A program made the translations under genes and the position numbers. Below the pieces are notes generated by a model that saw only the letters and a list, made by a program, of their open reading frames with translations, was not told the DNA's origin and did not search any database. From Candidatus Woesearchaeota archaeon (GTDB lineage Archaea > Nanobdellota > Nanobdellia > Woesearchaeales > UBA11576), in NCBI GenBank assembly GCA_018675335.1, contig JABGYH010000007.1, positions 111,902 through 175,901 on the forward strand: a stretch of DNA of 64,000 bases. The letters run 5' to 3'. How positions within the stretch are numbered: the first letter of the stretch is position 1; every line of letters begins with the position of its first letter. Below, one piece after another: positions 5,110 to 57,282 of this stretch.

Positions 5110-5981
5110 AGTCTAATAGTCGAATAATCGCACCATCAAAAAAAATTTCTAAACACGAATTAATTAAGGGAATACAAAGATTACATAAAATAGGATTTAT
5201 CCCAAAATATAATTCAGATATTACTAGTTCAGATATTTATTTTGCAGGCACTTTGCAACGTCGTGTATTAGAAATCGAAACTGCACTTTTAGAAGTAAAA
5301 AATCCATTTATTTTTTGCGCTCGCGGAGGATATGCTTCTATGGAACTTCTCTCACACATTAATCCGAAGCTAATAAAAAAATCAAAAAAAACAATCATAG
5401 GCCATAGCGATATTACAGCATTACTCCTCGGTTTTTATAAAAAAGGATTTCAAGGCAATTTAATACACGGACCTAATATTTGCACTAAAAACTGGATTGA
5501 AAATTCAGTATCAGAAAAGTTATTAATTGATTGTTTAACAAATAAACCATACAAAATTAATTTAAAAAATCACACCCACATTTTAAATGAAAAAAGTTTT
5601 AATGGACACATAATAGGGGGAAATTTAAGAATTATTTGCCACATGATTGGCACAGAATATGAAATTGATACTAACAAAAAAATATTATTTTTAGAAGATG
5701 TTAACGAAAGACCTGCCGCAATATATAATATGTTACTTCACCTAAAATTGGCAGGAAAGTTAAAAAATATTAAAGCATTACTTATAGGAAATTTTCAAAA
5801 ATCAAGAAATTATTTAAAATTACTAGAAAAATTTATCAAAACTCTTAAAATACCAATTATTTATGAGCTTAGATTAGGCCACCAAAATAATATAATACCC
5901 ATAAGGCTAGGAGATTATGTTCATTATAATACCTTAACAAAAAATTTATCTTTTAAAAACAATAAACAAACAAAAAAATAA
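5082..5981 (+). CDS. S66-family LD-carboxypeptidase (LdcA/MccF-like)
   Basis: GHSDITALL nucleophile-Ser motif and a C-terminal GH-containing segment. Overlaps the upstream gene by 28 nt. Confidence 0.7.
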   Translation: MDQFTYLEMKSNSRIIAPSKKISKHELIKGIQRLHKIGFIPKYNSDITSSDIYFAGTLQRRVLEIETALLEVKNPFIFCARGGYASMELLSHINPKLIKKSKKTIIGHSDITALLLGFYKKGFQGNLIHGPNICTKNWIENSVSEKLLIDCLTNKPYKINLKNHTHILNEKSFNGHIIGGNLRIICHMIGTEYEIDTNKKILFLEDVNERPAAIYNMLLHLKLAGKLKNIKALLIGNFQKSRNYLKLLEKFIKTLKIPIIYELRLGHQNNIIPIRLGDYVHYNTLTKNLSFKNNKQTKK

Positions 5982-5998
5982 ATAATTTTTAAATATGT

Positions 5999-6616
5999 GT
6001 GATATTCATGAAACCATATAAACAAACAACGAGGTATACATCTGCGAGTAGTGCTCTATTGATGGTGTTGAATCACTTTGATTCTAAGTTTGAGTTAAGT
6101 CGCGATAACGAATTTTGGATTTGGCAGAGAAGTGCCACTCTTCCTACAAGAGGATCTTCCATATATGCGCTTGGGACTTTGGCTGCAAAAAAAGGAATTT
6201 CTGTATCCATTATTGTGGAAGAACCAGAATATAAATTTCCAGGATATAGATTTAAAGCATACAAGAAAAAAGAAATTGATGTTGCCAATTTTCGTTCAGA
6301 ATTATTTTACAAACAAGCAACCAAAGAAAATATTAAAATTGAAGAAAGAGATTTTGAATTAACTGAAGTTAAAGACTTACTTTGTCAAGGAAAATTGTTA
6401 ATGGTTAGATTAATAGTTGGAATTTTAAGACAAAGTAAATTAAATAGACGAAATCCACATTATGTTTTAATTACAAATTATGATTCTGATAAAAAAGAAT
6501 TTAAAATAATTGATACTCGAAAAGGAAAATTAAAAATTTCTGAAGAACTAATGATTGAAGCTTTTGAAACAGTACATACCTGCAAAAGAGATAATAGAAT
6601 GATCATATTTGGATAA
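5999..6616 (+). CDS. C39-like (papain-fold) peptidase domain protein. The canonical Cys is replaced, so it is possibly Ser-nucleophile or inactive.
   Basis: His in HYVLI followed about 17 residues later by IIDT, matching C39 His/Asp topology. The N-terminal TSASSALLMVL occupies the position of the CGxxxL nucleophile motif but has no Cys. Confidence 0.4.
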   Translation: MIFMKPYKQTTRYTSASSALLMVLNHFDSKFELSRDNEFWIWQRSATLPTRGSSIYALGTLAAKKGISVSIIVEEPEYKFPGYRFKAYKKKEIDVANFRSELFYKQATKENIKIEERDFELTEVKDLLCQGKLLMVRLIVGILRQSKLNRRNPHYVLITNYDSDKKEFKIIDTRKGKLKISEELMIEAFETVHTCKRDNRMIIFG

Positions 6617-9240: not shown

Positions 9241-10281
9241 TTATAACAATGATGCGAACACTTCAAATTTTTGTTCCCTATAACTAATTAATGTGTCATA
9301 ATTTTTAACTCGATCTTTAAATTCAAGACGGATCTTACGAATAGTGTCATGAAATCCCTTTTGATTTCTAGCAACAACTTTTAACACAATATTATAATCC
9401 CCCATTGTTTTCATTGCACGAACAATATTTGGGTGCATCCTTACAAGTTGCTTGAATTTCATCTCATCTTCTTTAGTCATGTATTTCATATTCAAAAATA
9501 AAGTATAAAATTGATATCCTATTAAAGACCAGTTAATGATTGTGCTAAATTGTTGAATTACGCCTTTGTCCACTAGTTTTTTAATTCGGTAATTAACAGT
9601 ATCTGCACTGACACTTAATTTTTCAGCTAACGCATATAATGATTCCCTGCCATTTTTTGCGAGAAGATTCATTAAATTCCTATCAGTTTCATCCAATTTA
9701 ATATCATCTTGCCCTAATTCTTTATGCTTTTTTGGTTTATCCAAATTTTCGATTTCAGGTGGCTCTTCAATTTTTTGTTTTACAAATTCTCTTGGTATGT
9801 TAACATAGGAATAATTTTTGATAACATGAAAAATTTCCATATTTTCAACTAGATCAGAAAACTTTGTTAAAAAATCATTTAATACTTCATCAAATTCATC
9901 AACAGTTTTAGAATAAACCGCCAATTCAAGCTCCCATTTATCACTATATTCTATAATATTTAGAAAATTAGGATTTTTTTTAAGATAATCAAATAATTCT
10001 TTTTCTTTGCTTGACTCTAATTCGACAATTTGCAAATATACCTTAAAATGCTTATAATCAAATAAAGAATATTTAGATAAAATTGTGAATTTTTGTATAA
10101 CTCCTAATTCTTGCATGCGATTAATTCTATACCTAACTGCATCTCGTGATAACATCACTTTTTTTGCAAGCTCAGAAAATGTTAAACGACAATTATTAAC
10201 TAACAACCCAATAATTTTCCTATCTTTTAGGTCGAGCTTAGGAAGCTCAGAAACTTCATCCAGTATTCTTGTTACAACCAT
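9241..10281 (-). CDS. Tandem-fused Lrp/AsnC family transcriptional regulator (two HTH+RAM modules)
   Basis: Two repeats of an HTH (DRKIIGLLVNNCRLTFSELAKKV / DRNLMNLLAKNGRESLYALAEKL) each followed by a RAM-like domain. 346 aa is about 2 x 170. Confidence 0.7.
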   Translation of the reverse strand: MVVTRILDEVSELPKLDLKDRKIIGLLVNNCRLTFSELAKKVMLSRDAVRYRINRMQELGVIQKFTILSKYSLFDYKHFKVYLQIVELESSKEKELFDYLKKNPNFLNIIEYSDKWELELAVYSKTVDEFDEVLNDFLTKFSDLVENMEIFHVIKNYSYVNIPREFVKQKIEEPPEIENLDKPKKHKELGQDDIKLDETDRNLMNLLAKNGRESLYALAEKLSVSADTVNYRIKKLVDKGVIQQFSTIINWSLIGYQFYTLFLNMKYMTKEDEMKFKQLVRMHPNIVRAMKTMGDYNIVLKVVARNQKGFHDTIRKIRLEFKDRVKNYDTLISYREQKFEVFASLL

Positions 10282-10520
10282 TTTAGATATTTTAAAATTT
10301 ATTATTATTTAAAACTTACGATTTAATTAGCTAATTATGTGAAAACTTAATTAAATCACTAATCAAACTCAAGAATAATAAGAAAAATAAGTAAACTGAT
10401 AAAACTAAGAAAAATAAGACAACTAATAAAAATAAGAAAACTCAAAAAAATAAAATCAACCATAATAATAAAAATAATAATAAAAATAATAATAATTATA
10501 AAAATACGCAAGACCCATAG

Positions 10521-19900: not shown

Positions 19901-21925
19901 ATGGTCTCAAAAACAACTAAAAAAACTATCAATGCAAAAAAAACTGCTAAAAAAGAATCTAAATCTAACACCAAAATTGATTCTAAAAAGACTACTAAAA
20001 CAGTCGCAGCTAAAAAAAATCCTAATTCAATTAATCCTAAATTAACACCAAAAGCAAAATTTGCAAAATTTAAAGATACTTCAGAGATTACTGTATCAAA
20101 AAGTCTTGTTCATCAAGTTATAGGACAAGAAAATGCAGTAGAAATTGTAAAAAAAGCATCAAAACAAAGAAGACATGTTTTTCTTATTGGTGAACCTGGA
20201 ACTGGAAAAAGTATGTTAGGTTTAGCACTCGCAGAACTTCTTCCAAAAGAAAAATTAGTAGACATTGTTGCATTCCCAAACCCGAATGATGAAAATTCAC
20301 CATTAATTCGAACAGTTCCAGCAGGAGAAGGAAGAACACTTGTTGCAAAAAATAGATTACAATCAAATAACATATTCAAAAATCAAAATATACTCATGTT
20401 CGCATTACTTATTGTTGCAATGATTGCGCCTTGGTGGGCAAGATCCCATTACAACTCAGACATAATGTTTGCAGCATTTTTCTTAGGATCAATGATATTT
20501 TTAGCAGCATTTGTTTTATTTATGAATTTAGGCAAAAAAATGCCTGGAAAAAACCAATCACCAAAAGTAATTGTTGATAATTTTGGAAAAAACCAAGCAG
20601 CATTTTTTGATGCAACTGGAAGTCATGCAGGTGCACTTCTTGGAGATGTATTACACGACCCATTTCAATCAGGAGGACTTGGAACTCCCGCTCATGAAAG
20701 AGTAGTTGCAGGAATGATACATAAAGCAAACAAAGGAGTTTTATTTGTTGACGAAGTTGCAATACTACAACCACACACACAACAAGAATTATTATCCGCA
20801 TTACAAGAAAGAAAATTTTCAATTACTGGACAAAGTGAACGAAGTGCTGGCGCCATGGTTAGAACAGAACCCGTTCCTTGTGATTTTGTACTTGTTGCTG
20901 CAGGAAATTTAGAAACTGTAAAACACATGCACCCGGCATTAAGATCTAGAATTCGAGGATATGGTTACGAAGTATATATGAAAGAAACAATGCATGACAC
21001 TGAACAAAATAGGTGGAAACTTGCAGTATTTATTTCACAAGAAGTTAACAAAGATACCAAAATACCTCACTTTAGTAAAGAAGCAGTAATGGAAATAATT
21101 GAAGAAGCAAGACGAAGAGCTAATAGAAAAAATCATTTAACTGTAAGACTTCGAGAACTAGGTGGACTAGTAAGAGCTGCAGGAGATTTAGCTAGCGAAG
21201 AAGGTGCAAAACTAGTTGAGAAAATACATGTTACTAATGCAAAAAAAGTTGCGAGAACGCTCGAACATCAAATTGCTGATAAATATATTGAACACAAAAA
21301 AGAATATGAAGTAATAAGAACTCATGGAACTCGAATTGGCCGCGTAAATGGACTTGCAGTAATTGGTGCAGGATCAACACACAGCGGAATTATTTCCCCA
21401 CTAGAATCTCAAGTTACACCAGGCGGAAAACAAAAAGAGTTTATTGCAACTGGAAAACTTGGAGAAATTGCAAAAGAATCAGTAATTAATGTAAGCGCAA
21501 TTGTTAAAAAATATTTCGGAGATGATTTACTCGAGAAATATGATGTATATGTTCAATTTTTACAAACCTATGAAGGAGTGGAAGGAGATAGCGCAAGTAT
21601 TGCAATTGCCACATCAATTGTTTCTGCACTTAAACAAATTCCAATCAAACAAACAGTTGCAATGACCGGAAGTCTTTCTGTACGTGGAGAAGTATTACCT
21701 ATTGGAGGTGTTAGTAGCAAAGTAGATGCTGCAATTGATGCAGGAATTAAAACAGTAATTGTTCCTAAATCAAACTTAAAAGATATTGTTGTAGATCCAG
21801 AAAAGTTAAAGAAAATTAACTTAATTCCTGTTGAAACAATCAGCCAAGTATTACAACAAGCACTTGATTGGAAAGGACATGAAAGTTTGTTAAAGAAAGT
21901 TAAGAAAATGAATGGTTGTGATTAA
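19901..21925 (+). CDS. lonB: Archaeal membrane-bound Lon protease (LonB) with a Lys-rich N-terminal extension
   Basis: [11 protein letters not shown] Walker A, two TM helices inserted in the AAA domain, C-terminal Lon protease domain ([11 protein letters not shown], Ser-Lys dyad). Confidence 0.85.
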
Positions 21926-22028: not shown

Positions 22029-23087
22029 TTATTCAACCATTTCTTGACGCCACAAACCTTTAGTTGCATCCACAAGAACTAACCTTACATGAGGTGCTTT
22101 GCCCGCATCGTAAACCTCAATACTATCGGAAGTTAAAACGCACTTGTGAAGACTAACTTCTTGATCTGTAAGAATCTTATACTGAGTAACCAAATGAGTT
22201 GTCATCTTCTCAAAATCTTCTGCAACTTCATGAAAATTCAAAAAAAACGTGTTGATTCCCTCTTGTTCTAATGCTTCATGAATTTTAATAGGTTTAATTT
22301 TTAATTGCCTTGTACGCACGTATTCATTTTTACGATACAACTGATTTTTATCTGCAAATAACAAATAAGTCATAACTGCTTCAGGAAACAATTCTCGTAA
22401 TGGCTCAAATAAATTTGAAACTAATTTAGGTTCTTCAATATCTAACGCACCAGTTTTTGCTTCTAACACAACTAAATGTCTTTGCCTATAAAACCTATAA
22501 TCAAACAAACCATCTAATTCTTTAACTGCAGTATAACCATAATCATCCTCCCCTGTAGATCTTAAAATAACCATATTAGGATAACCTGCAATTTTTAAAA
22601 TATGATCAGGAGTGTGCCTTACAATATACCCTTCACGATCTTGCGGATCAAACCTTGAATCAAATAACCCACCCATTTTTCCAGAAGACGAAAGTCTACG
22701 AAGAAAATATTTTGTAATCCTTCTTGCAATACGTTCAGAAAGTTCACCACGTAAATCTCTCACCCTATTTTCGAGAGGAGTTTCTAATTCATCACTTTCT
22801 CCACTTTCAATTAAAATTTGTTTATGTGTTTGTGCAAAATTCAACAAATCTTCAACAGTAAACAAATCAAAACTCAACCCATCGAGATTGTATTCAATAA
22901 GAACTCTATGAGGGAGATCTCTACCCCTGTTAATCCCATCATTTTGATTGTGCAATGCGTAACCAGTTTTAAACCCATGATTTCCCCGCGTAGAATATAT
23001 TAATTTACCATTTCTTGGAGCCCACTGCACAGGTGATTGAATAACAAAAGGAGACGAATAACGATCTGATTCATTATGATTTTGCAT
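22029..23087 (-). CDS. Hypothetical protein with a possible PD-(D/E)xK nuclease-like motif (ELDGLFD ... VVLEAKTG)
   Basis: 352-aa ORF with GC and amino-acid composition distinct from its neighbours (R/H/Y-rich). D...ExK pattern seen. No other family recognised. Confidence 0.45.
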   Translation of the reverse strand: MQNHNESDRYSSPFVIQSPVQWAPRNGKLIYSTRGNHGFKTGYALHNQNDGINRGRDLPHRVLIEYNLDGLSFDLFTVEDLLNFAQTHKQILIESGESDELETPLENRVRDLRGELSERIARRITKYFLRRLSSSGKMGGLFDSRFDPQDREGYIVRHTPDHILKIAGYPNMVILRSTGEDDYGYTAVKELDGLFDYRFYRQRHLVVLEAKTGALDIEEPKLVSNLFEPLRELFPEAVMTYLLFADKNQLYRKNEYVRTRQLKIKPIKIHEALEQEGINTFFLNFHEVAEDFEKMTTHLVTQYKILTDQEVSLHKCVLTSDSIEVYDAGKAPHVRLVLVDATKGLWRQEMVE

Positions 23088-23159: not shown

Positions 23160-24167
23160 TCACCAATAAACATCAATATCATCAGTTCTAAGATATGGCT
23201 CAATATTAGCATTTTCGGGAAGAGTAATTCCTCCAGCTTTGTGCATGAGAATTCCAAGCCACGCAATCATCAAACCATTATCAACATTAACTTCAACTGG
23301 AAGAGAATATGATTTTGCATCTCGTTCTTTACACATAATAGAACACATTTCTTGAAGCCTTAAACTAGACGCGACACCGCCTCCGAGAAGAAGCTCTTTT
23401 TTACCGCAATGCGCCATAGCACGCTCACTAACTTCAACTAACGCTGCAAAAGATACTTCTTGCATACTATACGCTAAATCTTCTTTAGAATAAATTTCGG
23501 ACTTAAACTTTTGTTTTAAATTTGTGAGAAGCCCACCTAAACTAATGTCCATCCCTTTAACAACATAGGGCAATTCAATCAACGGTTTTGGATTTTTAGA
23601 ATTTGGATTAATATCACTCTTTAAAGAAAGTTGATATAATTTAGGCCCTCCCGGAAAACCCAAACCAATATGTCTTGCAAAACTATCAAGAAAATTGCCA
23701 ATTCCCATATCAAGTGTTTCACCAAATACTCTATACTTGCCACCTTCATAAGCAATAATTTGAGTATTCGCACCAGATGCGTACAAAAAGACTGGATCTT
23801 TTGCAGGACTCATCAACTTACCAATTTCAAGATGTGCAATACAATGATTAACTCCAATTAATGGAATATCATATTCGAGTGCAATTGCTCGTGCAACCAT
23901 CGCACCAATTCTTAAACAATTACCAATACCCGGACTTTGCGAAAATGCAATAAGATCAATTTTAGATAAAGTCAAATTAGCTTTTTCTAAAGCTTGATCA
24001 AGAATTTTTTCAAAATTTAATAAATGATGTTCTGCTGCTTTTGCAGGAATAATTCCCCCTTCTTCTGTTGTGTAGAGAATTCTCTCATTAGCAAGCTTTT
24101 TACCCGAATCATCAATAATTCCAACTCCAAACGTGTGTGCTGTGCTTTCGATACCTAAACAAATCAT
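23160..24167 (-). CDS. kae1: tRNA N6-threonylcarbamoyladenosine synthase Kae1 (KEOPS catalytic subunit)
   Basis: ASKHA fold: MICLGIESTAHTFGVGI, HxxxH-like CIAHLE, GGVASSLRLQ. Confidence 0.85.
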   Translation of the reverse strand: MICLGIESTAHTFGVGIIDDSGKKLANERILYTTEEGGIIPAKAAEHHLLNFEKILDQALEKANLTLSKIDLIAFSQSPGIGNCLRIGAMVARAIALEYDIPLIGVNHCIAHLEIGKLMSPAKDPVFLYASGANTQIIAYEGGKYRVFGETLDMGIGNFLDSFARHIGLGFPGGPKLYQLSLKSDINPNSKNPKPLIELPYVVKGMDISLGGLLTNLKQKFKSEIYSKEDLAYSMQEVSFAALVEVSERAMAHCGKKELLLGGGVASSLRLQEMCSIMCKERDAKSYSLPVEVNVDNGLMIAWLGILMHKAGGITLPENANIEPYLRTDDIDVYW

Positions 24168-24385
24168 AAAAAATGCCTCACAAAAAATAGTTTATTAATT
24201 TATGAATAACCGTCAATAAATAATATTTTATAAATGATGTTTCATAAAAATATCATACTTAACAAAGTAAATATTGAAAAAAAAGCGTTAAAATGCTTTA
24301 ATCAATCAAATAAGGGCAAAATAAACTAATTTCCCCCTAAAACCACCAAAAACAATATATAGTATAAATAGTTTTTCCAAAAAAA

Positions 24386-26332
24386 ATGGCATTTGAAAAA
24401 AAATCTCCAACAGAGGAAGAATTTTTAGTACAAATAAAAGCCAATAATCCAAATGCAAACTTCGAATTAATTCAAAAAGCATACCGCTTTGCAGAAAATG
24501 CGCACAAAGGACAAAAAAGAGAATCAGGCGAAGATTTTTTTATTCATCCCTTGCAAACTGCAACAATTCTAGTACAATTAAAAGCTGACACTGCAACTAT
24601 TTGTGCAGCACTATTACATGATACAGTAGAAGACACCCCTAATTCAATCGACGTAGTTCGAAAAGAATTTGGAGAGGAAATTGCCGTACTTGTTGAAGGA
24701 GTTACCAAAACACAAGGCATTTGGTTTGATTCAAAAGAAGAATACAAAGCAGAAAATCTTCGTAAAATACTTCTTGCAACAACAAAAGACTTCAGAGTTA
24801 TAGTTGTCAGACTTGCAGACAGACTCCACAATATGCGAACTCTTTCTTATTTTAGAGAAGATAAACAAAAAAGAATAGCAAAAGAAACAATGGAAATTTA
24901 TGCACCCATCGCACACAAATTAGGAATTTGGAGAATTAAAGGAGAGTTAGAAGATTTATCATTAAGATATTTAGATTACAAAACATACAGCATTCTACGA
25001 GAAAAAATAGCTGAGAAAAGAGGAGAACGAGAAAAAGCAACAACTGATCTTACTCAACAAATAAAAGATGCACTAAAAAAAGAAGGAATCGATGCAGATG
25101 TAAAAGGACGTGCAAAATATTTCTACTCAATATATAAAAAGATGACAAAAAAGAATCGTCGCTTTGATGAAATATATGATTTAATAGCATTCAGAATAGT
25201 TACTTCTCGCGTCGAGGAATGCTATAAAGCAGTTGAAATAATAAATAAATTATTCACACCTCACCCAGAAAGATTTAAAGATTATGTAGCACACCCGAAA
25301 GCCAACGAATACCAATCAATACACATGACTGTAGGGTATAAGAAAAAATTACTCGAAGTTCAAATAAGAACTAATGATATGGACCACATCGCAGAAGAAG
25401 GAATTGCTGCACACTGGAGATACAAAGGAACAGAACGAGACAAGAAATTTGATAGAAAAATTGCCTGGTTAAAACAAATTCTTGATTGGAAACGAAAATC
25501 AAAAAACGCAATAGAATTCGTCGAGTCACTAAAAATAGATTTATTTGAAAATGAAATAATAGTTTTTACTCCACAAGGAGATCCGATTTCATTACCTGAA
25601 TGTGCAACCCCTGTTGATTTCGCATATGCAGTCCATAGTAATTTAGGAAATCAATGCAGTAAAACAAAAGTCAATAATAAAATCGAATCACTAGATTACG
25701 AACTTCACAGCGGAGATGTTGTCGAAGTAATCACTCAAAAAAATGCTAAACCCTCTAGGTCGTGGCTTAATTTTGTAAAAACAACTAAAGCAAAAAGTAA
25801 AATTAGAATTTTCTTAGAAATCAAACCCGATAAAAAACTTGGAGATAAAAAACGAAAAGCAATAGCTCGCGGCGAACTTGAAGAAAAAATACCCGTACTT
25901 GAAAATATACTAATCCACGGAAAAGATTCTGGCAAAAATAATTTAATAAAATTGTCAGGATGTTGTGAAATAAAACATGGAGAAAAAATAGTTGGATTTT
26001 ATACAAAAGAAAAAAAAATAAGCATCCACAAACAGGGATGTATCAATATTCACTCACTTGATTCAAATCGCGAAGTAAAATTAAGTTGGATAGTTCCAAA
26101 AGATTATAATATTAAAAAACTCAAAGTATTTGTTGATGATAGGCCAGGAGTTTTAGCAGATATTTTAAACTATTTGGGAACCAAACAAATCAAAGTTAAA
26201 TCTGTTAATACAAGAGCTAAGAAAAAGAAAATACTACTAACATTCAAAATAGAACTTTCTGATGAGAATAAATTAAATAAAACGATTCAAGAAATAAGTG
26301 AAATCCGAGATGTTATTGAAACTAGAATTTAA
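24386..26332 (+). CDS. Long RelA/SpoT-homologue (p)ppGpp synthetase/hydrolase: HD + synthetase + TGS + ACT domains
   Basis: HD: HPLQTATILVQL...LHDTVEDT. Synthetase: DLIAFRIVT...YQSIHMTV. TGS: IVFTPQGDPISLPECATPVDFAYAVHS. C-terminal ACT-like region. Confidence 0.85.
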   Translation: MAFEKKSPTEEEFLVQIKANNPNANFELIQKAYRFAENAHKGQKRESGEDFFIHPLQTATILVQLKADTATICAALLHDTVEDTPNSIDVVRKEFGEEIAVLVEGVTKTQGIWFDSKEEYKAENLRKILLATTKDFRVIVVRLADRLHNMRTLSYFREDKQKRIAKETMEIYAPIAHKLGIWRIKGELEDLSLRYLDYKTYSILREKIAEKRGEREKATTDLTQQIKDALKKEGIDADVKGRAKYFYSIYKKMTKKNRRFDEIYDLIAFRIVTSRVEECYKAVEIINKLFTPHPERFKDYVAHPKANEYQSIHMTVGYKKKLLEVQIRTNDMDHIAEEGIAAHWRYKGTERDKKFDRKIAWLKQILDWKRKSKNAIEFVESLKIDLFENEIIVFTPQGDPISLPECATPVDFAYAVHSNLGNQCSKTKVNNKIESLDYELHSGDVVEVITQKNAKPSRSWLNFVKTTKAKSKIRIFLEIKPDKKLGDKKRKAIARGELEEKIPVLENILIHGKDSGKNNLIKLSGCCEIKHGEKIVGFYTKEKKISIHKQGCINIHSLDSNREVKLSWIVPKDYNIKKLKVFVDDRPGVLADILNYLGTKQIKVKSVNTRAKKKKILLTFKIELSDENKLNKTIQEISEIRDVIETRI

Positions 26333-26394
26333 GAATATACTTCAAAATATATCTTTTAGTAAAGTTTAAATAATAGCTTTTTATCATTAGGCAC

Positions 26395-26733
26395 ATGGAA
26401 GAAACAAAAAGCCAAGAAACCATAGAAAAATTCAAAATAAAGACCAAAAGCGTCCTAATAAGTAGATTGCCCCGTAAAGAAGGCGATGACTTCAAAACAG
26501 TGGTTTTAAAGCTTTATGACATCAATAACCCACATAAAACCGCAGAGTTTCCTACTAAAACACTAGAATTCGCTAATAATGAGAAAGTAAGAATTAGACG
26601 ACTTAATGTTTCATACTATATGGAAGGCAATGATATTGTAATAAACGACTTAGAAGAAATATATATAGAAAAACGACCTAAAAAGCTTTTACTACGAGGA
26701 TATCAAGTCGAAGTAGAAGAAAGAGACGAATAA
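26395..26733 (+). CDS. Hypothetical protein (112 aa)
   Basis: ORF immediately downstream of the RSH gene on the same strand. No motif recognised. Confidence 0.4.
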   Translation: MEETKSQETIEKFKIKTKSVLISRLPRKEGDDFKTVVLKLYDINNPHKTAEFPTKTLEFANNEKVRIRRLNVSYYMEGNDIVINDLEEIYIEKRPKKLLLRGYQVEVEERDE

Positions 26734-26793: not shown

Positions 26794-27531
26794 TTATATT
26801 TTTCCAACTAACACAACCGAATCTCCCGAATCATAATCTAATTCTAAAACATCTTTAAAAAATGCAGATGCTTTTTTATGATGTTGAACTTGATCATACA
26901 AGCAACGACCATAAAGTCCCCTAATTACCATTCGATCATCAGGCAATTTTGGTGTTGGAACTGCCAGTGCAATATCGCGGATGGTTTCAGGAATGGCCCC
27001 TTCAGACAATGCAACATTTGGAAATAACTCTGACACCAGATTACTCGTTGCAGCATAAATAACTGGATTTTGAGTTCGCATAACTAAATAATCGAATCCC
27101 GATTCTGAAAGATCACTTATTGCGCGTTTGTTAACTTCGTAAAAATGTTTATGTTTTTGAATTTCTTTTTCTAACACAACACCTTTAAGATGTAAAATTT
27201 TTTGACCCTTATGCTCAATAAATTTATATGAACAAAAACCCTTAATTTTATCACCATACGAAATCAGATAAAGCGCATCACAATTAAATGCATTATCCCT
27301 TACTTCTTCAATAGGGATGTCAGTTCCAAACCCATCTCTTGCAATCCCTAACAGAATATCAGTTAATTCATCTTGATTAGCACCCCTAAAAACTTCTCCC
27401 GGAGCTCTTACTAAATCAACTCGAACATCGGAGAGACCCAAACGTTTACCTAAAGAATGATTTCTTGCAAAATCACTCGCCATTAATTCTTTTGTTACCC
27501 CTTCTGTAAATATTAAATCTCCAAATACCAT
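26794..27531 (-). CDS. Hypothetical protein (245 aa)
   Basis: Clean ORF. A GNAT-like core is possible, but the Q/RxxGxG/A motif was not found. Confidence 0.4.
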   Translation of the reverse strand: MVFGDLIFTEGVTKELMASDFARNHSLGKRLGLSDVRVDLVRAPGEVFRGANQDELTDILLGIARDGFGTDIPIEEVRDNAFNCDALYLISYGDKIKGFCSYKFIEHKGQKILHLKGVVLEKEIQKHKHFYEVNKRAISDLSESGFDYLVMRTQNPVIYAATSNLVSELFPNVALSEGAIPETIRDIALAVPTPKLPDDRMVIRGLYGRCLYDQVQHHKKASAFFKDVLELDYDSGDSVVLVGKI

Positions 27532-27977: not shown

Positions 27978-28415
27978 TCATTCAAAATTAAATCCTTCTC
28001 GTTTTATGTCTTCCAAAATATAATGAATTTCAGTGTTAGCAATATTAAATACGTCAAGCGACTCAATAAAATAATCCAATTCGCGCACATTACGATGTAC
28101 TGTTTCTGCGATAAAATCCCACCCATTGTTAATTTTAAATAAATTATTCACAGACTTATGAAGTAAAAGATGAGATCTTAATCTATTCCTAAAAATAGGA
28201 TCACATTTTATGAAAATTTGTGCTTTAACATCAAAACCCAATTCAGAAAAATTAAGTAAAATTGTTGAATGAGAAATAATCTGATGTTTTAAAAACTTTA
28301 AAGAATCAAAAAGAGTAGAAATAGGAATATTTGTTTTTTTACTAATAACCGTAAGTTTTTGCCTAGAATCTACCCTTAGCTGAGTTAACAGCTTTATATT
28401 TTTTGAATCCAACAT
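27978..28415 (-). CDS. Lrp/AsnC-family regulator (single HTH+RAM)
   Basis: HTH followed by a KINNGWDF RAM-type segment. Paralogue of 29484..29936. Confidence 0.65.
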   Translation of the reverse strand: MLDSKNIKLLTQLRVDSRQKLTVISKKTNIPISTLFDSLKFLKHQIISHSTILLNFSELGFDVKAQIFIKCDPIFRNRLRSHLLLHKSVNNLFKINNGWDFIAETVHRNVRELDYFIESLDVFNIANTEIHYILEDIKREGFNFE

Positions 28416-28502: not shown

Positions 28503-29468
28503 ATGTTAATTGATGCGATAAATAACAAAATTTTAGCAGAATTAGATCAGAACTCTCGCGCTCAATATTCTACAATTGCAAAAAAACTTAAATTAAGCAA
28601 ACAATCAATAAAAAAACGTATCGACAAATTAATAGATGAAAAAATAATAACTCAATTTACGACAATTATAAATTCTGCAATCTATCCATTAAACCCTGCT
28701 CAAATATTTATTTCACTCCATAACACTTCAAAAGATGATAAAGAAAAAATCGTTTTGGAACTATTTAATAATTTCAAAATACCCCAATTAACTGTTTGTG
28801 ATGGGACCTATGATCTTTTCTTCGGATTACGTGCAGAAAACATTAGAGAATTTGATTGCGAATTAAGAAAAATATGCACTAAATATTCTAGCCACATCAA
28901 AGACCGAAAAATTATCCAGTTAGTTGAAACCAAATTACTTCCAAGAACTTTTTTGACTGGAAAAAAAAGAGAAATAATTCCCTCAGATAAAGGATTTCAC
29001 TCTAAAATAAATAAAACTCAACTTAGTCCATTAAAAGAAATGGATTATGCAATTCTAAATAAACTCGCAGAAAATCCTAAAATCAGTTATGTTTCGTTAG
29101 CAAATGAACTAAATATTACAACACAAACTGCAATGAATAAAGTTAAAAATTTAGAAAAATCAAACATCATCATAGGCTATTCTTACCTTTTAGATGCACA
29201 TAAATTTGTTCATTATCAACTTTTACTTGCATTCACAACAATCACCAAAGAATTAGACCAAAAACTAAACAATTATTTTTTGATCAATCCCAACGTGATT
29301 TTTGTTAGTAAAACTTTAGGCGAATTTGATTACACAATCGCGTTTGAAACTAATAATTTTGAAGACTACAGAAAATTCAATGAAGAATTTAAAAAAGAAT
29401 TTTCAACACACCTAAAAAGTTTTGTCCCACTTTTAGTTACTGACTTTGTAAAATTAAAATTTCTTTAA
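28503..29468 (+). CDS. Tandem-fused Lrp/AsnC-family regulator (two modules)
   Basis: Two HTH segments (NNKILAELDQNSRAQYSTIAKKL / DYAILNKLAENPKISYVSLANEL), each followed by a RAM-like domain. Confidence 0.65.
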   Translation: MLIDAINNKILAELDQNSRAQYSTIAKKLKLSKQSIKKRIDKLIDEKIITQFTTIINSAIYPLNPAQIFISLHNTSKDDKEKIVLELFNNFKIPQLTVCDGTYDLFFGLRAENIREFDCELRKICTKYSSHIKDRKIIQLVETKLLPRTFLTGKKREIIPSDKGFHSKINKTQLSPLKEMDYAILNKLAENPKISYVSLANELNITTQTAMNKVKNLEKSNIIIGYSYLLDAHKFVHYQLLLAFTTITKELDQKLNNYFLINPNVIFVSKTLGEFDYTIAFETNNFEDYRKFNEEFKKEFSTHLKSFVPLLVTDFVKLKFL

Positions 29469-29483: not shown

Positions 29484-29936
29484 TTAAACTGCATGATCAG
29501 GTTTAAACTCTTCTTTTTTAATCTCATCAATTAAATAATGAATCTCTTGATTTTCTAAACCAAATCTTTGAGATATGTTTTCTAAAAAAAAATCTAAATC
29601 TTTTACATTAGGGTGTATTGTTTCAATCATAAAATCCCACCCATTATTTATTTTATAAAACGAATTAACCGAGTTATTACAACTCAAGTGATTTCGTAAA
29701 GACTCTTTTGACTCCCCTGACGTTTTTAAAAAAACCATTGCCCGAGTATGATATCCTAATTCAGAAAAATTAAGTAACACAGTATTTTTATGAATAATAT
29801 TTTTTTGAAGAATTTTTATCGAATCAAATAGAGTCGAAACTGGAACTCCCGTTGTCTTACTAATCTTAGTTAGTTTTTCCCTAGAATTATCTCTTAGACA
29901 AGATATTAGTTTTATTAGTTTTTCATTCATAAACAA
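29484..29936 (-). CDS. Lrp/AsnC-family regulator, paralogue of 27978..28415
   Basis: About 50% identical to the 27978..28415 product (VSTLFDS..., LLNFSELG, KINNGWDF). Confidence 0.65.
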   Translation of the reverse strand: MFMNEKLIKLISCLRDNSREKLTKISKTTGVPVSTLFDSIKILQKNIIHKNTVLLNFSELGYHTRAMVFLKTSGESKESLRNHLSCNNSVNSFYKINNGWDFMIETIHPNVKDLDFFLENISQRFGLENQEIHYLIDEIKKEEFKPDHAV

Positions 29937-40098: not shown

Positions 40099-41196
40099 TT
40101 ACAATAAATCTAATGAAGTATCAAACTCAGTTAAAATTTCATCAGTAGTATCTTTATCAATAAATGCTGCTTTAACCCCATTCTTAACCAGTTTTTTTAG
40201 ATCTCCTTTTCTAAATCCAAGATGATTTACCAATAAATACATTTCTTTAGTAATATTGGTGTTGCTAACTAAACGATTATCAGTATTAATACAAACTCGT
40301 AACCCGCGCATCATCATTTGACGAATCGGGTGTGCTTGAATTGACGGTATTGTTTTTGTATGAACATTACTTGAGATACAAACTTCGAATGGAAGTCTAC
40401 TCGTATTTGCTTCCCTCACCAATAGAGTACTACCCAACACATGAGTTCCATGACCAATACGTTTTGCCCTTAAGTAAACTAATGATTCAGAAATACTTTT
40501 AGCACCATATGCTTCACCAGCATGAATTGTGACCGGAACATGATGCTTAAAAACAGGCATACAAACTTTTTCTAATTCTTTTGGCCTATGACCATATTCT
40601 GCTCCCGCAATATCAAATCCAACAACCCCCTGACCATAATAATTAATTGCAATTCTAACTGCTTCTTCAGTTGCAGATTTATCTGTTCTAATTCCACAAA
40701 CAATTAAACCAACATGAATTCGCTTTTTTAATTTTTCTTTACAATATTTTTTTCCTGCATCCAATCCTTCAAGAACTGCTTCAATAATTTGAGGAAGTTT
40801 AAGTTTTGGAGTAACATAGTTTGTCGGCGCAAATCGTACTTCAAGAAGACGCACATTTTCAGAAACACAATCAACAACAAGTTCGAATGCAACTCGTTTT
40901 AATGTACGCTCACTTTTCATCACACTTTCAGTTAAATGAAACGCTTTAAGATATTCTTCAAGATCCAGGGCATTTTCTTTTATTACCAATTTTTTAAGTG
41001 TTTCAATATTATAAGAAGGAAGTTTAATTTTTTGACGTTTAGCTTCATCAATCAAAGTTGTAATTCTCATGCTACCACCAAGATGAACATGAATGTCAGT
41101 TTTTGGAATTTTTTTAATCCAAGCAATAGTTGGAAATTCTAAGTCTGACTTTTTTTTATACTTATTTAATGGTTGGATGTATTTGAAGCTGTTCAT
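40099..41196 (-). CDS. Adenosine/adenine deaminase family amidohydrolase
   Basis: DIHVHLGGS, HAGE, CINTDN motifs. Confidence 0.75.
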   Translation of the reverse strand: MNSFKYIQPLNKYKKKSDLEFPTIAWIKKIPKTDIHVHLGGSMRITTLIDEAKRQKIKLPSYNIETLKKLVIKENALDLEEYLKAFHLTESVMKSERTLKRVAFELVVDCVSENVRLLEVRFAPTNYVTPKLKLPQIIEAVLEGLDAGKKYCKEKLKKRIHVGLIVCGIRTDKSATEEAVRIAINYYGQGVVGFDIAGAEYGHRPKELEKVCMPVFKHHVPVTIHAGEAYGAKSISESLVYLRAKRIGHGTHVLGSTLLVREANTSRLPFEVCISSNVHTKTIPSIQAHPIRQMMMRGLRVCINTDNRLVSNTNITKEMYLLVNHLGFRKGDLKKLVKNGVKAAFIDKDTTDEILTEFDTSLDLL

Positions 41197-41488: not shown

Positions 41489-42031
41489 ATGAAAGAAATA
41501 GAAGTAAAAATACTAGATATTGACAAAGAAAAAATTGTTACAAAGTTATTAGATCTTGGAGCAAAAAAAGTTTTCGAAGGAGATATGAACATCGAATTCT
41601 TCGACTATCCCGATAAACGATTAAAAAATGAGAATAAAATTTTACGTTTGCGTACAAAAGGAGATCAGGCAGAATTGACATTTAAACACGCATTGAGTCG
41701 AGAAGGAGTGAAAATTGCAGAAGAAATAGAAACTCACACAGATGATTTTGAGACTACGCGAGAAATAATAGAACAAATAGGATTAAAATTATTAATCCAA
41801 ACACAAAAACACAGAGAATCATATTTACTACAAATTTCTGAAAAAGAAAAAATACAATTTGAATTTGATACGCACAAGGGAATCCCAACATTTCTTGAAA
41901 TTGAAGCAAGCAGCGTTGAACTTGTTGAAACATATGTGAACAAATTAGGATTTAATATGCAAGATACAACTACCATGAACGGCAAACAAGTAATGGAGAA
42001 ATATGGCCAAAAATTATCAAAATTATTTTAG
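41489..42031 (+). CDS. CYTH-domain protein (CyaB-like class IV adenylyl cyclase / triphosphate tunnel metalloenzyme)
   Basis: N-terminal EIEVK motif. 180-aa beta-barrel pattern. Confidence 0.6.
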   Translation: MKEIEVKILDIDKEKIVTKLLDLGAKKVFEGDMNIEFFDYPDKRLKNENKILRLRTKGDQAELTFKHALSREGVKIAEEIETHTDDFETTREIIEQIGLKLLIQTQKHRESYLLQISEKEKIQFEFDTHKGIPTFLEIEASSVELVETYVNKLGFNMQDTTTMNGKQVMEKYGQKLSKLF

Positions 42032-42089
42032 AAAAAAAAATATCAATAAAAAAATAATTTAAAAAAATCTAAAAAGAGGGTTTAATAAA

Positions 42090-42614
42090 ATGGCTGAAGA
42101 AGAAATGCTAATTGTTGTGGATGAGCAAGACAATATTATCAGACATGCGACAAGACATGAATGTCATGAAAAAAAATTATTACACAGAATAATTGAAGTG
42201 CTCGTTTTCAAAGATAATACATACAAAGAAGTCTTAATTCAAAAAAGAAGCAGCACTAAAAAAGTAGAACATAATATGTTCGCACTCACAGAAGGCCATG
42301 TTGGCAAAGGAGAAACTTATTCATTAGCTGCAAGACGCGAAGTAGCAGAAGAATTATTTTGCGAAAAAGAATTACCTTCCGACGTTGAAATTGAAGAATT
42401 ATTTAAAATTTCAAAACTTGAAGGAGATCCGACATTCATGCAAGTTTTTAGAATTATTCATCCAGGACCATTTAACATAGACCTCGTCGAAGTTGGAGAA
42501 GTATTTTTTCAAGACATAAATAAAGTTATTAAAAACATAACTGAAAGCCCTGATGAATACACCCACTCATGCAGATATGTTTTAGAAGAATATCAAAACA
42601 AATTTATGAATTAA
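42090..42614 (+). CDS. Nudix hydrolase (IDI-like)
   Basis: Nudix box GHVGKGETYSLAARREVAEELF. Confidence 0.65.
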   Translation: MAEEEMLIVVDEQDNIIRHATRHECHEKKLLHRIIEVLVFKDNTYKEVLIQKRSSTKKVEHNMFALTEGHVGKGETYSLAARREVAEELFCEKELPSDVEIEELFKISKLEGDPTFMQVFRIIHPGPFNIDLVEVGEVFFQDINKVIKNITESPDEYTHSCRYVLEEYQNKFMN

Positions 42615-43797: not shown

Positions 43798-43966
43798 ATT
43801 TAAACCAAAAAAAAGGAATGGGTATTTAAAGTTAATTGTTGGTATTAAACTATAAAATACAGAAGATTCAAGTTAAACAGGGTTGAGACTGGTTCAAACG
43901 GGAATTCTTACGAGTCGGAAGATTTAAATATGTCTTGGAAATTCACTTAAAAACCATAGAACATAT

Positions 43967-44040
43967 GGGGCTATAGTGTAACTTGGTTATCACTCGTGGT
44001 TTGGGGCCATGCGATCGGGGTTCAAATCCTCGTAGCCCCA
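43967..44040 (+). tRNA. tRNA-Pro (anticodon UGG)
   Basis: Cloverleaf folded by hand. 7-bp acceptor stem GGGGCUA/UAGCCCC. T-arm CGGGG-UUCAAAU-CCUCG. Anticodon stem CGUGG/CCAUG with loop UUUGGGG. Discriminator A. No encoded CCA. Confidence 0.85.
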
Positions 44041-44135
44041 TATTAATTCATTAAATAAGGTTTATTTAACAATATTTAATAAACACAACAAAAATAAACC
44101 AAAATCATAATAAACTAAATAAAAGGTAAATAAAA

Positions 44136-44330
44136 ATGGCAAGTAGAACAAAAAGACGAGAAATACAAGCTATGAAGAAAACAGTAATTAAGATAAAAAG
44201 ACCTAAAACTTTCAAAACAGAAGAAGCGGCAAATACCTGGGCAAAGGCTCAAGGAATCGGAAAATACACATTACAAAATATTAAAAGTCCTGAAGCTGCA
44301 ACAAAAAAGATTAGAGTCATAGCAGAATAA
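44136..44330 (+). CDS. Small basic hypothetical protein (64 aa)
   Basis: ORF between the tRNA and L37ae. No motif recognised. Confidence 0.35.
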   Translation: MASRTKRREIQAMKKTVIKIKRPKTFKTEEAANTWAKAQGIGKYTLQNIKSPEAATKKIRVIAE

Positions 44331-44482
44331 ACAAAAACATTCATAAAATTATAAATAGCTTAAAAGTGAAAAGATTTTTAAAGAGACAACAATACCTCTA
44401 AATCAATCGAAAATCAATAATAGAGCTTAAAATAGCCCTGTTAAATCATAAAAAGTTAAAATAAACTATTAAGAGCTAAAAA

Positions 44483-44788
44483 ATGGCTAAAACAAGACTT
44501 AGAACTACGACAAAAAGATATGGACCTAGATATGGGGCTCGAAATAAAATTAAAGCTGCTAGAATCGAAGAAGAAAGCAGAAGAAAACATAAATGTCCTT
44601 ACTGTAATTATATTCAAGTTAGAAGAATAAGCAAAGGAATTTGGTTTTGCTCAAAATGTAAAGTTAAATTCGTAGGAAAAGCTTATACTATTCCTAAAGA
44701 AAAGAAAAAAGAGATAACACCAGAGATTTATGATCTGGTAAGTGAAGACATGTATAACAAAGAAGAAGCAGAAGAACAAGAAGCGTAA
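44483..44788 (+). CDS. rpl37ae: 50S ribosomal protein L37ae with an acidic C-terminal extension
   Basis: RYGPRYGARNK and C4 zinc ribbon CPYC...CSKC. Confidence 0.85.
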   Translation: MAKTRLRTTTKRYGPRYGARNKIKAARIEEESRRKHKCPYCNYIQVRRISKGIWFCSKCKVKFVGKAYTIPKEKKKEITPEIYDLVSEDMYNKEEAEEQEA

Positions 44789-44809
44789 AAATAGCTTCAT
44801 ACATCAAAA

Positions 44810-44947
44810 ATGGTAGAATATAAATGTTTCAATTGTAACAAAAAAGTCAGCATGGACTACTTACGAAAAAAAGTAAGATGCCCATATTGCGGATCTAAAG
44901 TTCTATACAAACAAAGACTTGTTTCAACAAAAGTAAAAGCAAGATAG
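44810..44947 (+). CDS. rpoP: DNA-directed RNA polymerase subunit P (RpoP/Rpb12, 45 aa). Not in the ORF track.
   Basis: Manual translation gives MVEYKCFNCNKKVSMDYLRKKVRCPYCGSKVLYKQR: CxxC...CxxC zinc ribbon. Confidence 0.6.
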   Translation: MVEYKCFNCNKKVSMDYLRKKVRCPYCGSKVLYKQRLVSTKVKAR

Positions 44948-45196: not shown

Positions 45197-45197
45197 A

Positions 45198-45527: not shown

Positions 45528-45606
45528 TTGTTCTTTAACTCACATTAACTTAATCAAATTTTAAAATTAAAAAAATTATTAACAAGGTCATCTATTATGC
45601 AACAAA

Positions 45607-57267: not shown

Positions 57268-57282
57268 TTGTGAGAATAAAAA

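Follow-up and report, generated by a model that had tools for sequence, protein, structure and literature searches.

A long RelA/SpoT homologue among archaeal genes

We analysed a 64,000-nucleotide stretch of a Candidatus Woesearchaeota archaeon contig (the window), in which an uninterrupted ORF with an ATG start (24386..26332, + strand) encodes a 648-aa long RelA/SpoT homologue (RSH), predicted to be a Rel-type bifunctional (p)ppGpp synthetase/hydrolase. The protein is identical to NCBI MBT7903187.1, which is assigned to Candidatus Woesearchaeota archaeon and already bears a bifunctional (p)ppGpp synthetase/hydrolase annotation, and its score of 679.8 bits against NCBIfam TIGR00691 (spoT_relA, cut-off 499.2) places it in the TIGR00691 / COG0317 family. 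Among solved structures, B. subtilis Rel 6yxa is the closest match (E 6e-142 over aa 14-493), and the AlphaFold2 (AF2) model, with a pLDDT of 82.3, returned RelA, Rel and SpoT as its top Foldseek matches. Given 648 codons in a genome of 30% GC and E-values of such size, the ORF is far beyond chance. Searches with tblastn found no second RSH (SAS or SAH) in the window.

The domains follow one another on the + strand: HD (hydrolase; aa 32-182, 24479..24931, Pfam HD_4, E 1.9e-47), synthetase (aa 241-349, 25106..25432, Pfam RelA_SpoT, E 1.3e-40), TGS (aa 391-450, 25556..25735, Pfam TGS, E 1.7e-16), the remnant of an alpha-helical (AH) domain (aa 451-518, 25736..25939), delimited by PDB alignments, a length survey, the homologue alignment and AF2, a zinc-finger/ribosome-intersubunit domain (ZFD/RIS; aa 519-568, 25940..26089), placed by alignment to RelA, and ACT/RRM (aa 578-645, 26117..26320, Pfam ACT_4, E 3.9e-10), which aligns to RelA 667-739 and adopts a beta-alpha-beta-beta-alpha-beta order in the AF2 model. 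An earlier note on this DNA had read HD, synthetase, TGS and ACT domains in a single 648-aa ORF; Pfam bears this out and adds the zinc finger, as PF28438 RelA_RIS appears in the precomputed Pfam list for the protein. An A/T-rich, TATA-like element read from the sequence (24355..24370, + strand), 15-31 nt 5′ of the ATG, is an unverified promoter candidate of no discriminating power, since the genome has 30% GC.

The divergent neighbour of the RSH gene, across an intergenic region of 218 bp, encodes archaeal Kae1 (t6A synthase; 23160..24167, - strand; TIGR03722, 419.8 bits), and an archaeal membrane LonB protease is encoded at 19901..21925 (+ strand; TIGR00764, 837 bits). The window also encodes aIF2alpha, Gins51, PAC2, aIF5A, an eRF1-family protein (aRF1-family) and SRP54, along with small ORFs resembling eL43 and RpoP, which we recognised by reading. 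The archaeal gene context first ascribed to the locus is thus confirmed. Directly 3′ of the RSH gene, a co-directional ORF (26395..26733, + strand) encodes a conserved 112-aa all-beta protein without an assigned function.

Active sites, sensing residues and a shortened helical domain

Both active sites are complete. All hydrolase residues are present (H54, H78-D79, E82-D83, D145 and N149), including the HD...D pair on which the first reading of an intact hydrolase domain was based, and they are kept in 114-133 of 133 archaeal homologues, with D83 the least conserved (D in 114, E in 16) and the others at 131-133. On the synthetase side we found R242, K244, K252, D265, R270, RFKD 296-299, Y309, H313, E324 and Q326. 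Eight residues of S. equisimilis RelSeq (R241, K243, D264, R269, Y308, H312, E323 and Q325) we take to be its Mg2+- and nucleotide-binding synthetase residues; R242, K244, D265, R270, Y309, H313, E324 and Q326 are each found in 132-133 of the 133 homologues. The synthetase catalytic residues that the earlier note had singled out for checking are therefore in place and conserved in archaeal relatives, and the loss of synthetase or hydrolase residues that it named as the mark of a degenerate relic is not what we see.

The RxKD motif reads R296-F-K-D299, with K298 in 131 homologues, D299 in 133, and R or K at position 296 in 123. Sajish et al. reportedly found that a basic RxKD marks bifunctional Rel and an acidic ExDD marks RelA. 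With a basic motif and an intact HD site, the window RSH carries both features of the bifunctional Rel subtype.

The residues expected to sense the ribosome and its tRNA are likewise retained. TGS H417, invariant in all 133 archaeal homologues, corresponds to B. subtilis Rel H420, which stacks on the CCA end of tRNA (PMC7797070). The zinc ligands C526, C527, H548 and C552 align to E. coli RelA C612, C613, H634 and C638 and are also invariant (133/133), and at the ACT positions matching RelA R670, D675 and R739, which touch the A-site finger and uL16, the residues are for the most part basic or acidic, as they are in RelA. Across catalytic, TGS and zinc-finger positions, conservation ranges from 113 to 133 of 133, with R296 and D83 lowest and most others at 131-133. 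Such conservation speaks for purifying selection, acting on the two activities and on the regulatory domains alike.

The window RSH has the same domain order, HD-SYNTH-TGS-helical-ZFD/RIS-ACT, as the Firmicutes Rel proteins (B. subtilis Rel, PDB 6yxa/6htq; RelSeq, 1vj7), and shares with them the HD and ED pairs, the equivalents of D264 and E324, RxKD, the TGS H420 equivalent and the zinc ligands. It differs from them in its archaeal rather than bacterial host, in its identity of only about 44-46% to the nearest canonical-length homologues, and in its size, 648 aa as against approximately 715-750 aa in the closest bacterial homologues. E. coli RelA and SpoT are homologous to it over the whole length; however, it scores below both equivalog cut-offs (NF008124, 414.7 vs 728; NF008303, 527.6 vs 947) and is therefore not an ortholog of E. 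coli RelA or SpoT, and its hydrolase site is intact, which that of RelA is not.

The difference in size lies in the AH domain, which is ~70 aa shorter than in bacterial Rel/RelA and lacks its core. The domain's N-terminal portion, aligning with RelA 458-501, is retained, whereas the RelA 502-600 interval is replaced by ~33 residues, which removes most of that interval, including the AH core (RelA aa ~520-560) that touches the D stem of A/R-tRNA. About 65 residues separate the end of TGS from the ZFD, and a full AH domain, as in E. coli RelA aa 485-580, is absent. Relative to 6htq, ~72 helical residues are missing (the alignment runs from 52 to 77 in the fragment and from 107 to 204 in the chain). 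The deletion is common to all 133 archaeal homologues aligned, and in our length survey the helical region measured 52-67 aa in archaeal short-AH proteins vs 114-149 aa in canonical-length, bacterial-type homologues. A second departure concerns the equivalent of RelA R629 in the zinc-finger domain, which we take to be a ribosome-binding residue and which is variable among the archaeal homologues (G 63, K 47, N 12, R 9). We counted the missing core and this variable position against the explanation that we favour.

That explanation, to which we give a probability of roughly 0.6, is that the product of the ORF is a functional long RSH, bifunctional and of Rel type, whose gene was acquired once from Bacteria and then inherited vertically, and whose AH core was lost along the way. 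If the enzyme works as bacterial Rel does (PMC7797070, PMC4974054), it would be closed and predominantly hydrolytic while off the ribosome; when amino acids run short, it would be held at the A-site finger/uS19 bridge of a stalled ribosome by its RIS and ACT domains, TGS would probe the A-site tRNA for its uncharged CCA end, and the synthetase would then move pyrophosphate from ATP to GDP or GTP, giving (p)ppGpp. In E. coli RelA the AH core packs against the D stem of A/R-tRNA (PMC4974054), and with the core lost in the archaeal lineage, the enzyme must hold the tRNA body in another way than bacterial RelA does. By analogy with Firmicutes, the targets of (p)ppGpp would probably be GTPases and enzymes acting on purine nucleotides, and not RNA polymerase. 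We infer, as the earlier note did, that this lineage may run a bacterial-style stringent response.

Alternatively, the enzyme could be functional yet independent of the ribosome in the manner of SpoT, mainly hydrolytic or weakly synthetic, and switched by a metabolite, through its ACT domain or by a partner instead of by deacylated tRNA. We consider this unlikely, though it accommodates several of the observations above: the group-wide deletion of the AH core, the variability at the R629 equivalent and the low confidence of the AF2 model over the linker at 482-501. The archaeal ribosome stalk, moreover, is eukaryote-like and unlike the bacterial one. What speaks for sensing on the ribosome instead is that TGS H417 and the zinc ligands are invariant and that the ACT contact positions mostly keep the charges found in RelA. 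We know of no role for these elements besides sensing of the ribosome and tRNA, and one would expect drift in them had they gone unused.

The downstream 112-aa gene

The small ORF had been put forward as a possible partner of the RSH. It exists, it is conserved, and in a sub-lineage it adjoins the RSH gene: a co-directional small ORF lies 33-188 bp after RSH in the window, in three related loci (L002-L004) and in 15 metagenome loci, with 41-71% identity between the small proteins. Source-named homologues of the small protein are all labelled archaeal, mostly Woesearchaeota, Nanoarchaeota or Nanoarchaeia. In the window the gap between the genes is 62 bp and holds a BRE/TATA-like element, aaagTTTAAATA (26361..26372, + strand), 22 nt 5′ of the small-ORF ATG, with a TTTAAATA element likewise 22 nt from that ATG.

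A two-gene module, in which the 112-aa protein would serve the RSH as a dedicated partner or regulator, is suggested by this adjacency, by the presumed presence of a small-protein homologue on the same contig for at least 21 of the 40 closest RSH homologues (with equal longest-contig size as the proxy), and by the other neighbours of the small gene, which elsewhere adjoins tRNA and translation genes (Pth2, AspRS, GluRS). We nevertheless regard such a module as improbable. Among the 62 informative small-ORF loci, defined as those with at least 700 bp upstream, RSH lies upstream in 17 and is absent from that position in 45, where other conserved arrangements are found (small->Pth2->AspRS, VKOR/small/JAB and DHH-OB/small). 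Conversely, distant short-AH RSH loci (L005, L093-L096) have no small ORF, such that adjacency is not kept everywhere that either gene occurs. The protein itself offers no domain or fold clue, with neither a Pfam nor a structural match. Finally, the TTTAAATA element is conserved ~22-27 nt upstream of the small-ORF ATG, and the BRE/TATA-like element is found again in the majority of the related RSH-linked loci that we examined, some richer in G+C among them, suggesting a promoter of its own and transcription independent of RSH. With its own promoter-like element and 45 of 62 loci without an upstream RSH, a partnership is weakly supported; in the explanation that we favour, the 112-aa gene is a separate, lineage-specific gene that is not required for the enzyme.

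A toxSAS-like toxin-antitoxin pair of the RSH and the small ORF was also considered and rejected, as the long RSH has its own hydrolase and the small gene mostly occurs elsewhere.

Lineage, origin and significance

RelA-type and plant RSHs often lack one active site, and for this reason we weighed the possibility that the gene is a degenerate relic or a pseudoenzyme that has lost one activity or both. We found no evidence for such a relic and consider it highly improbable: the residue analysis across the 133 homologues leads us to reject it, the reading frame is unbroken, and the AF2 model can, in its N-terminal half, be superposed on T. thermophilus Rel with a TM of 0.83. Bacterial contamination or a chimeric assembly, which the overwhelmingly bacterial distribution of RSHs and the odd MAG labels of some homologues ('Methanosarcinales', 'Thermoproteota') might suggest, has a negligible chance of being correct and is rejected, given the same arrangement on contigs of 564 kb (NCBI) and 556 kb (ENA) from two independent assemblies, a native composition (GC 0.317 and GC3 ~0.19, matching neighbouring genes), archaeal genes directly on both flanks, and a Kae1/RSH/LonB neighbourhood that recurs in many other samples.

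The Kae1(-)/RSH(+) pair is present in 15 of 15 related loci with sequence beyond the RSH 5′ end, even where RSH identity falls to 51%, and LonB is also near RSH in loci L003 and L005. This divergent pair is retained across a large archaeal group, of which the window RSH is a member. More than 120 RSH homologues fall at 53-73% identity, and those with a named source are mostly labelled Woesearchaeota, Nanoarchaeota or Nanoarchaeia. More distant short-AH RSHs, whose domain of life we inferred from gene neighbourhoods, also occur in archaeal contexts, near Orc1/Cdc6 and a TFIIS-type zinc ribbon, class I LysRS with Trm56, or eRF1. A scan of contigs with exact peptide patterns from the window RSH returned eight loci, mostly from bacteria, of which L005 alone was useful for taxonomic distribution.

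The closest named relatives of canonical length are Rel proteins of Firmicutes and Deltaproteobacteria, at 44-46% identity, and a 2021 mSystems survey reports RelA/SpoT in 41.7% of Woesearchaeota and predicts acquisition from Bacteria (PMC8407392). Of the view that RSHs are patchy in archaea and horizontally acquired, a bacterial origin is thus plausible, whereas the more than 120 homologues show that this is not an isolated case. The conserved Kae1/RSH gene order and the native composition argue for vertical inheritance after an old transfer, consistent with one ancient acquisition from Bacteria that would have been followed by vertical descent in Woesearchaeota-type DPANN archaea. Vertical inheritance in a lineage with conserved synteny is the outcome that had been named beforehand as one that would lessen the novelty. 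A neighbour-joining (NJ) tree on Kimura distances gathers all 43 short-AH sequences on one split (24/100 bootstraps) and a 35-sequence Woesearchaeota-type core on another (65/100); at these values we make no claim of robust monophyly for the short-AH group, and this crude analysis resolved no donor lineage. The weak bootstrap support was likewise counted against the favoured explanation.

The RSH itself is already known: the protein is deposited and annotated, and the occurrence of such proteins in DPANN is published. It is one of the DPANN RelA/SpoT homologues of the survey cited above, whose passages on ppGpp, the stringent response and SpoT report only presence (PMC8407392). The AH-core deletion, the residue-level integrity, the Kae1 synteny and the analysis of the small gene are additions of the present work.

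Archaea have been described as free of (p)ppGpp for forty years. To our knowledge, no archaeon has so far been shown to make (p)ppGpp, and we know of no DPANN RSH enzyme with a demonstrated activity or activator. By labelling and LC-MS, no (p)ppGpp was found in haloarchaea and Sulfolobus (PMC8646023), and a 2011 RSH census stated that long RSHs are absent from archaea (PMC3153485); DPANN genomes have since changed the genomic picture of archaeal RSH (PMC8407392). The value of the window RSH lies in a testable question and not in a new discovery. As a clean, full-length RSH on a large contig, with all catalytic and sensing residues, it is a good candidate for expression, complementation of ppGpp0 E. 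coli and ribosome-activation assays, and the group-wide loss of the AH core serves as a natural experiment: it asks how far a stringent factor can do without the bacterial apparatus for gripping tRNA. Tentatively, and with more doubt than assurance, we suggest that a true (p)ppGpp alarmone system, in that case the first in Archaea, might operate in Woesearchaeota-type DPANN, with an AH-core-less Rel that engages archaeal ribosomes in a different geometry and with the 112-aa beta-protein as a possible accessory.

Two bacterial RSHs of 670-671 aa (P0215 and P0259) have the same five recognisable domains and a helical region of 80-86 aa, between the archaeal and canonical lengths. They lie in bacterial contexts (flagellar hook genes; DnaE and sigma-70) and apart from the archaeal sequences in the NJ tree. 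Helical shortening is therefore not unique to archaea; only its extreme form is.

An intact Rel-type enzyme in an archaeal chromosome

The long RelA/SpoT homologue (RSH) of the window is an ATG-initiated ORF of 648 aa at exactly 24386-26332 (+), followed on the same strand, 62 bp after its end, by a 112-aa ORF (26395-26733). Pfam places HD_4 at aa 32-182 (E 1.9e-47), RelA_SpoT at aa 241-349 (E 1.3e-40), TGS at aa 391-450 (E 1.7e-16) and ACT_4 at aa 578-645 (E 3.9e-10). The protein scores 679.8 bits against the NCBIfam RelA/SpoT family model TIGR00691 (cut-off 499.2), but falls below the cut-offs of the E. coli-type SpoT and RelA equivalogs (527.6 vs. 947 bits and 414.7 vs. 728 bits, respectively). 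Among solved structures, B. subtilis Rel comes closest (6yxa, E 6e-142), and an AlphaFold2 model built with 62 homologues as input (mean pLDDT 82.3) has ribosome-bound RelA, B. subtilis Rel and full-length SpoT as top Foldseek matches, its catalytic half matching T. thermophilus Rel with a TM of 0.83. ORF coordinates, Pfam, NCBIfam, PDB match and model all agree with the intact, full-length RSH and co-directional small ORF described in the earlier note.

Residues were mapped by alignment to B. subtilis Rel and E. coli RelA, together with motif positions. The hydrolase site is complete (H54, H78-D79, E82-D83, D145, N149), and the synthetase site comprises R242, K244, K252, D265, R270, R296-F-K-D299, Y309, H313, E324 and Q326. 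A basic RxKD motif combined with an intact HD site distinguishes bifunctional Rel from monofunctional RelA, and the window RSH has both (RxKD as R296-F-K-D299). H417 is the counterpart of B. subtilis Rel TGS H420, which stacks on the uncharged CCA end (PMC7797070), and the zinc-finger/RIS ligands C526, C527, H548 and C552 align to RelA C612, C613, H634 and C638. Nearly all catalytic, TGS and zinc-finger positions are conserved in 131-133 of 133 aligned archaeal homologues, the least conserved being D83 (D in 114, E in 16) and R296 (R in 113, K in 10, H in 7); the position equivalent to RelA R629 varies (G 63, K 47, N 12, R 9). The HD pair that the earlier note had read as preserved and the synthetase residues are thus present and conserved across the group, and a check for lost catalytic residues found none in the window RSH. 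Since active and sensing residues are retained to this extent, with D83 and R296 as exceptions, a degenerate relic is ruled out, and purifying selection appears to act on both activities and on the regulatory domains.

The gene context is archaeal. Archaeal markers occur throughout the window, including the membrane protease LonB, the archaeal t6A synthase Kae1, an FtsY-like SRP GTPase, aIF2alpha, Gins51, PAC2, aIF5A, an eRF1-family protein, SRP54 and a DRG-type GTPase, and an independent ENA assembly carries the same gene order around the RSH on a 556-kb contig. With two assemblies in agreement, archaeal genes throughout and an RSH GC of 0.317 (third-position GC ~0.19) that is the same as in neighbouring genes, contamination or chimerism is excluded. 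The stretch with the top AT skew, 44136-45852 (+), lies just after tRNA-Pro (43966-44041) and contains no ORF of at least 110 aa; by reading, several small genes follow one another there on the same strand, for eL43 (L37Ae, 101 aa), RpoP (45 aa), a prefoldin-beta-like protein (109 aa) and proteins of 82, 81 and 64 aa.

A 2011 RSH census recorded archaea as being without long RSHs (PMC3153485). The occurrence of a long RSH in Woesearchaeota is nevertheless already known: a 2021 survey recorded RelA/SpoT in 41.7% of Woesearchaeota and predicted a bacterial source for it (PMC8407392), and the window protein is identical to NCBI MBT7903187.1 (Candidatus Woesearchaeota archaeon, 564-kb contig), annotated as 'bifunctional (p)ppGpp synthetase/guanosine-3',5'-bis(diphosphate) 3'-pyrophosphohydrolase'. 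In the incomplete literature set searched, we found no description of residue-level integrity in the archaeal group, loss of the AH core (below), Kae1 synteny or the status of the small gene. The window RSH is a real, intact Rel-type enzyme in a Woesearchaeota chromosome and probably functional; ordinary as a discovery, it is well suited to experiments on the question of (p)ppGpp use by any archaeon.

Loss of the AH core and inheritance of the RSH

The best 150 matches of an exhaustive phmmer search of 1.84 billion representatives fall into two classes: those of 630-680 aa match in a single stretch, those of 710-800 aa in two. The spacing from the TGS end to the zinc-finger start is 52-67 residues in 43 sequences, compared with 114-149 (one 192) in canonical proteins and 68-90 in a dozen intermediates. 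In PDB alignments, the window RSH aligns to E. coli RelA at 458-501 and then 601-739, and its alignment to B. subtilis Rel breaks off at 497 and resumes at 594; ribosome-RelA structures place the alpha-helical (AH) domain of RelA, between TGS and zinc finger, at aa 485-580. Across the alignment of 133 homologues, the archaeal RSHs lack the AH core and retain the part aligned to RelA 458-501, which we take to include the first linker helix. The AlphaFold2 model has two short helices in the AH region and a low-confidence segment at 482-501.

As for the RSH phylogeny proposed in the earlier note, the 43 short-AH sequences form one split in an NJ tree, but at a bootstrap of 24/100 (65/100 for a 35-sequence Woesearchaeota-type core), and neither the tree nor the nearest canonical homologues single out a donor lineage. 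At 44-46% identity, the nearest canonical proteins carrying a name belong to Firmicutes (Mitsuokella, Fimadaptatus) and Deltaproteobacteria. Four more distant short-AH members sit in archaeal contexts, beside Orc1/Cdc6 (twice) and a TFIIS-type zinc ribbon (L094), class I LysRS and Trm56 (L095), eRF1 (L096) or DUF357 (L093); the intermediates P0215 and P0259 are bacterial by context, one with flagellar genes and the other with DnaE and sigma-70. On L094, a DPANN-type contig, a gene at 9477-10289 (-), flanked by a 62-aa ORF and an Orc1/Cdc6 gene and 2.5 kb from the short-AH long RSH, encodes a 270-aa protein with a RelA_SpoT (synthetase) domain only. Sharing only 26% identity over 82 aa with the local long RSH, it resembles a small alarmone synthetase and is possibly a second alarmone synthetase in an archaeon.

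A word-indexed search recovered at least 120 full-length homologues (614-679 aa, 53-73% identity), and those with a named source among the matches listed are mostly Woesearchaeota, Nanoarchaeota or Nanoarchaeia. Kae1 lies upstream on the opposite strand in 15 of 15 fetched loci that reach past the RSH 5' end, and on three long contigs (L002-L004; RSH 73, 61 and 55% identical) the divergent Kae1 is accompanied by a small co-directional ORF after the RSH. This conserved arrangement indicates that the RSH is long resident and vertically inherited. One of the 15 loci, L005 (CAZDUE010000014.1; RSH 51% identical, LonB 70% identical to that of the window, GC 0.35), is labelled 'uncultured Methanosarcinales archaeon'. 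Its Woesearchaeota-type Kae1/RSH/LonB neighbourhood and 35% GC place that label in doubt; the locus looks Woesearchaeota-like, and an error in binning or classification is the probable source of the MAG label. Another close RSH homologue, P0031, carries the label 'Thermoproteota archaeon'. Between LonB and Kae1, the window has a 352-aa ORF (22029-23087, -) with no Pfam or NCBIfam match; the gene is missing at the matching position of L003, which has a zinc-ribbon transcription factor gene instead.

The downstream small gene

The small ORF at 26395-26733 (+) is a real gene, with counterparts downstream of the RSH in L002, L003 and L004 (63, 59 and 40% identical). Its protein has 69 homologues by single-sequence search and 492 by profile search, none with a functional name or Pfam domain; all of those with an organism name are archaeal, mostly Woesearchaeota, Nanoarchaeota or Nanoarchaeia. 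The earlier note proposed it as a possible RSH partner. Using the small protein as query, 80 metagenome loci were fetched, of which 62 have at least 700 bp upstream: an RSH lies upstream of it in 17 (15 at 33-188 bp, 2 at 984 bp), whereas 45 have no upstream RSH. Of the 40 closest RSH homologues, at least 21 have a longest contig equal in length to that of a small-protein homologue, a proxy for presence on the same contig, so within the sub-lineage of the window the two genes do stay paired. The link is only partial, and a dedicated RSH partner is quite improbable.

Gene orders in the 45 RSH-free loci include small gene, Pth2, AspRS (15), VKOR(-)/small/JAB(-) (~18) and DHH-OB/small (3). A sister lineage (L026, L025, L028, L032, L039, L040, L047, L052, L073 and L092) has Pth2 (peptidyl-tRNA hydrolase) and then a class II AspRS-type synthetase after the small gene, with Pth2 in 15 loci and both genes in 11; in L071 the small gene adjoins GluRS. 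These recurring tRNA and translation neighbours may be a clue to the role of the protein, suggestive and no more. A recurrent BRE/TATA-like element, aaaNTTTAAATA (26361-26372 in the window), lies ~22-27 nt 5' of the ATG in most RSH-linked loci, including higher-G+C ones, which suggests separate, probably leaderless, transcription of the small ORF.

Convergent with the small ORF is a 245-aa ORF (26794-27531, -) with no Pfam or NCBIfam match. The window carries four Lrp/AsnC-type regulators: between two paralogues of ~145-150 aa, at 27978-28415 (-) and 29484-29936 (-), lies a protein of 321 aa that has two HTH_AsnC modules (28503-29468, +), and a second protein with the double module (346 aa) is encoded at 9241-10281 (-). 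In L002, a 145-aa AsnC-type HTH gene is found downstream of the RSH.

A possible stringent factor and its surroundings

All parts that would be required for (p)ppGpp synthesis, hydrolysis, CCA-end reading and A-site finger/uS19 anchoring are present and conserved. Off the ribosome, bacterial Rel acts as a hydrolase; it becomes a processive synthetase once deacylated tRNA locks it on the starved ribosome (PMC7797070). By analogy, the archaeal RSH would run this cycle on archaeal ribosomes; contacts to the tRNA body would be altered because the AH core is missing, and the RIS surface may be changed too, given the variable R629-equivalent position. We put the probability of a distinct archaeal stringent factor acting on archaeal ribosomes at roughly 35%. 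The main rival to the ribosome-dependent cycle, ribosome-independent, SpoT-like control of the RSH, we consider unlikely.

For an archaeal stringent factor, our guess, by analogy, at (p)ppGpp targets would include translation GTPases, purine-salvage enzymes and the DRG/Obg-family GTPase at 46466-47638 (+), which has a C-terminal TGS domain and is a candidate in view of the (p)ppGpp binding of Obg-family GTPases in bacteria. In the segments 41489-42614 (+) and 40099-41196 (-), a CYTH (triphosphate tunnel) protein and a NUDIX hydrolase are encoded side by side, with an adenosine deaminase adjoining; that these nucleotide-phosphate-handling enzymes touch alarmone or purine metabolism is pure speculation.

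Elsewhere in the window, a co-directional, bacterial-looking cluster (3071-6616, +) encodes an ATP-grasp (GSH-S/RimK-like) protein, an octopine/nopaline-dehydrogenase-like protein, an LD-carboxypeptidase (Peptidase_S66) and a C39-like peptidase (DUF3335), with a possible role in scavenging or modifying peptidoglycan peptides. A bacterial-type prolipoprotein diacylglyceryl transferase, Lgt (47645-48454, +; Pfam E 2.4e-61), and a signal peptidase II gene (Peptidase_A8) adjoining the RSH on the archaeal contig L096 (3152-3664, -) are together a hint that these DPANN archaea mature lipoproteins by a bacterial pathway. Adjacent genes at 56494-58581 (+) encode [NiFe]-hydrogenase small (Oxidored_q6) and large (NiFeSe_Hases) subunits, a metabolic capacity that DPANN archaea with small genomes would not always be expected to have.
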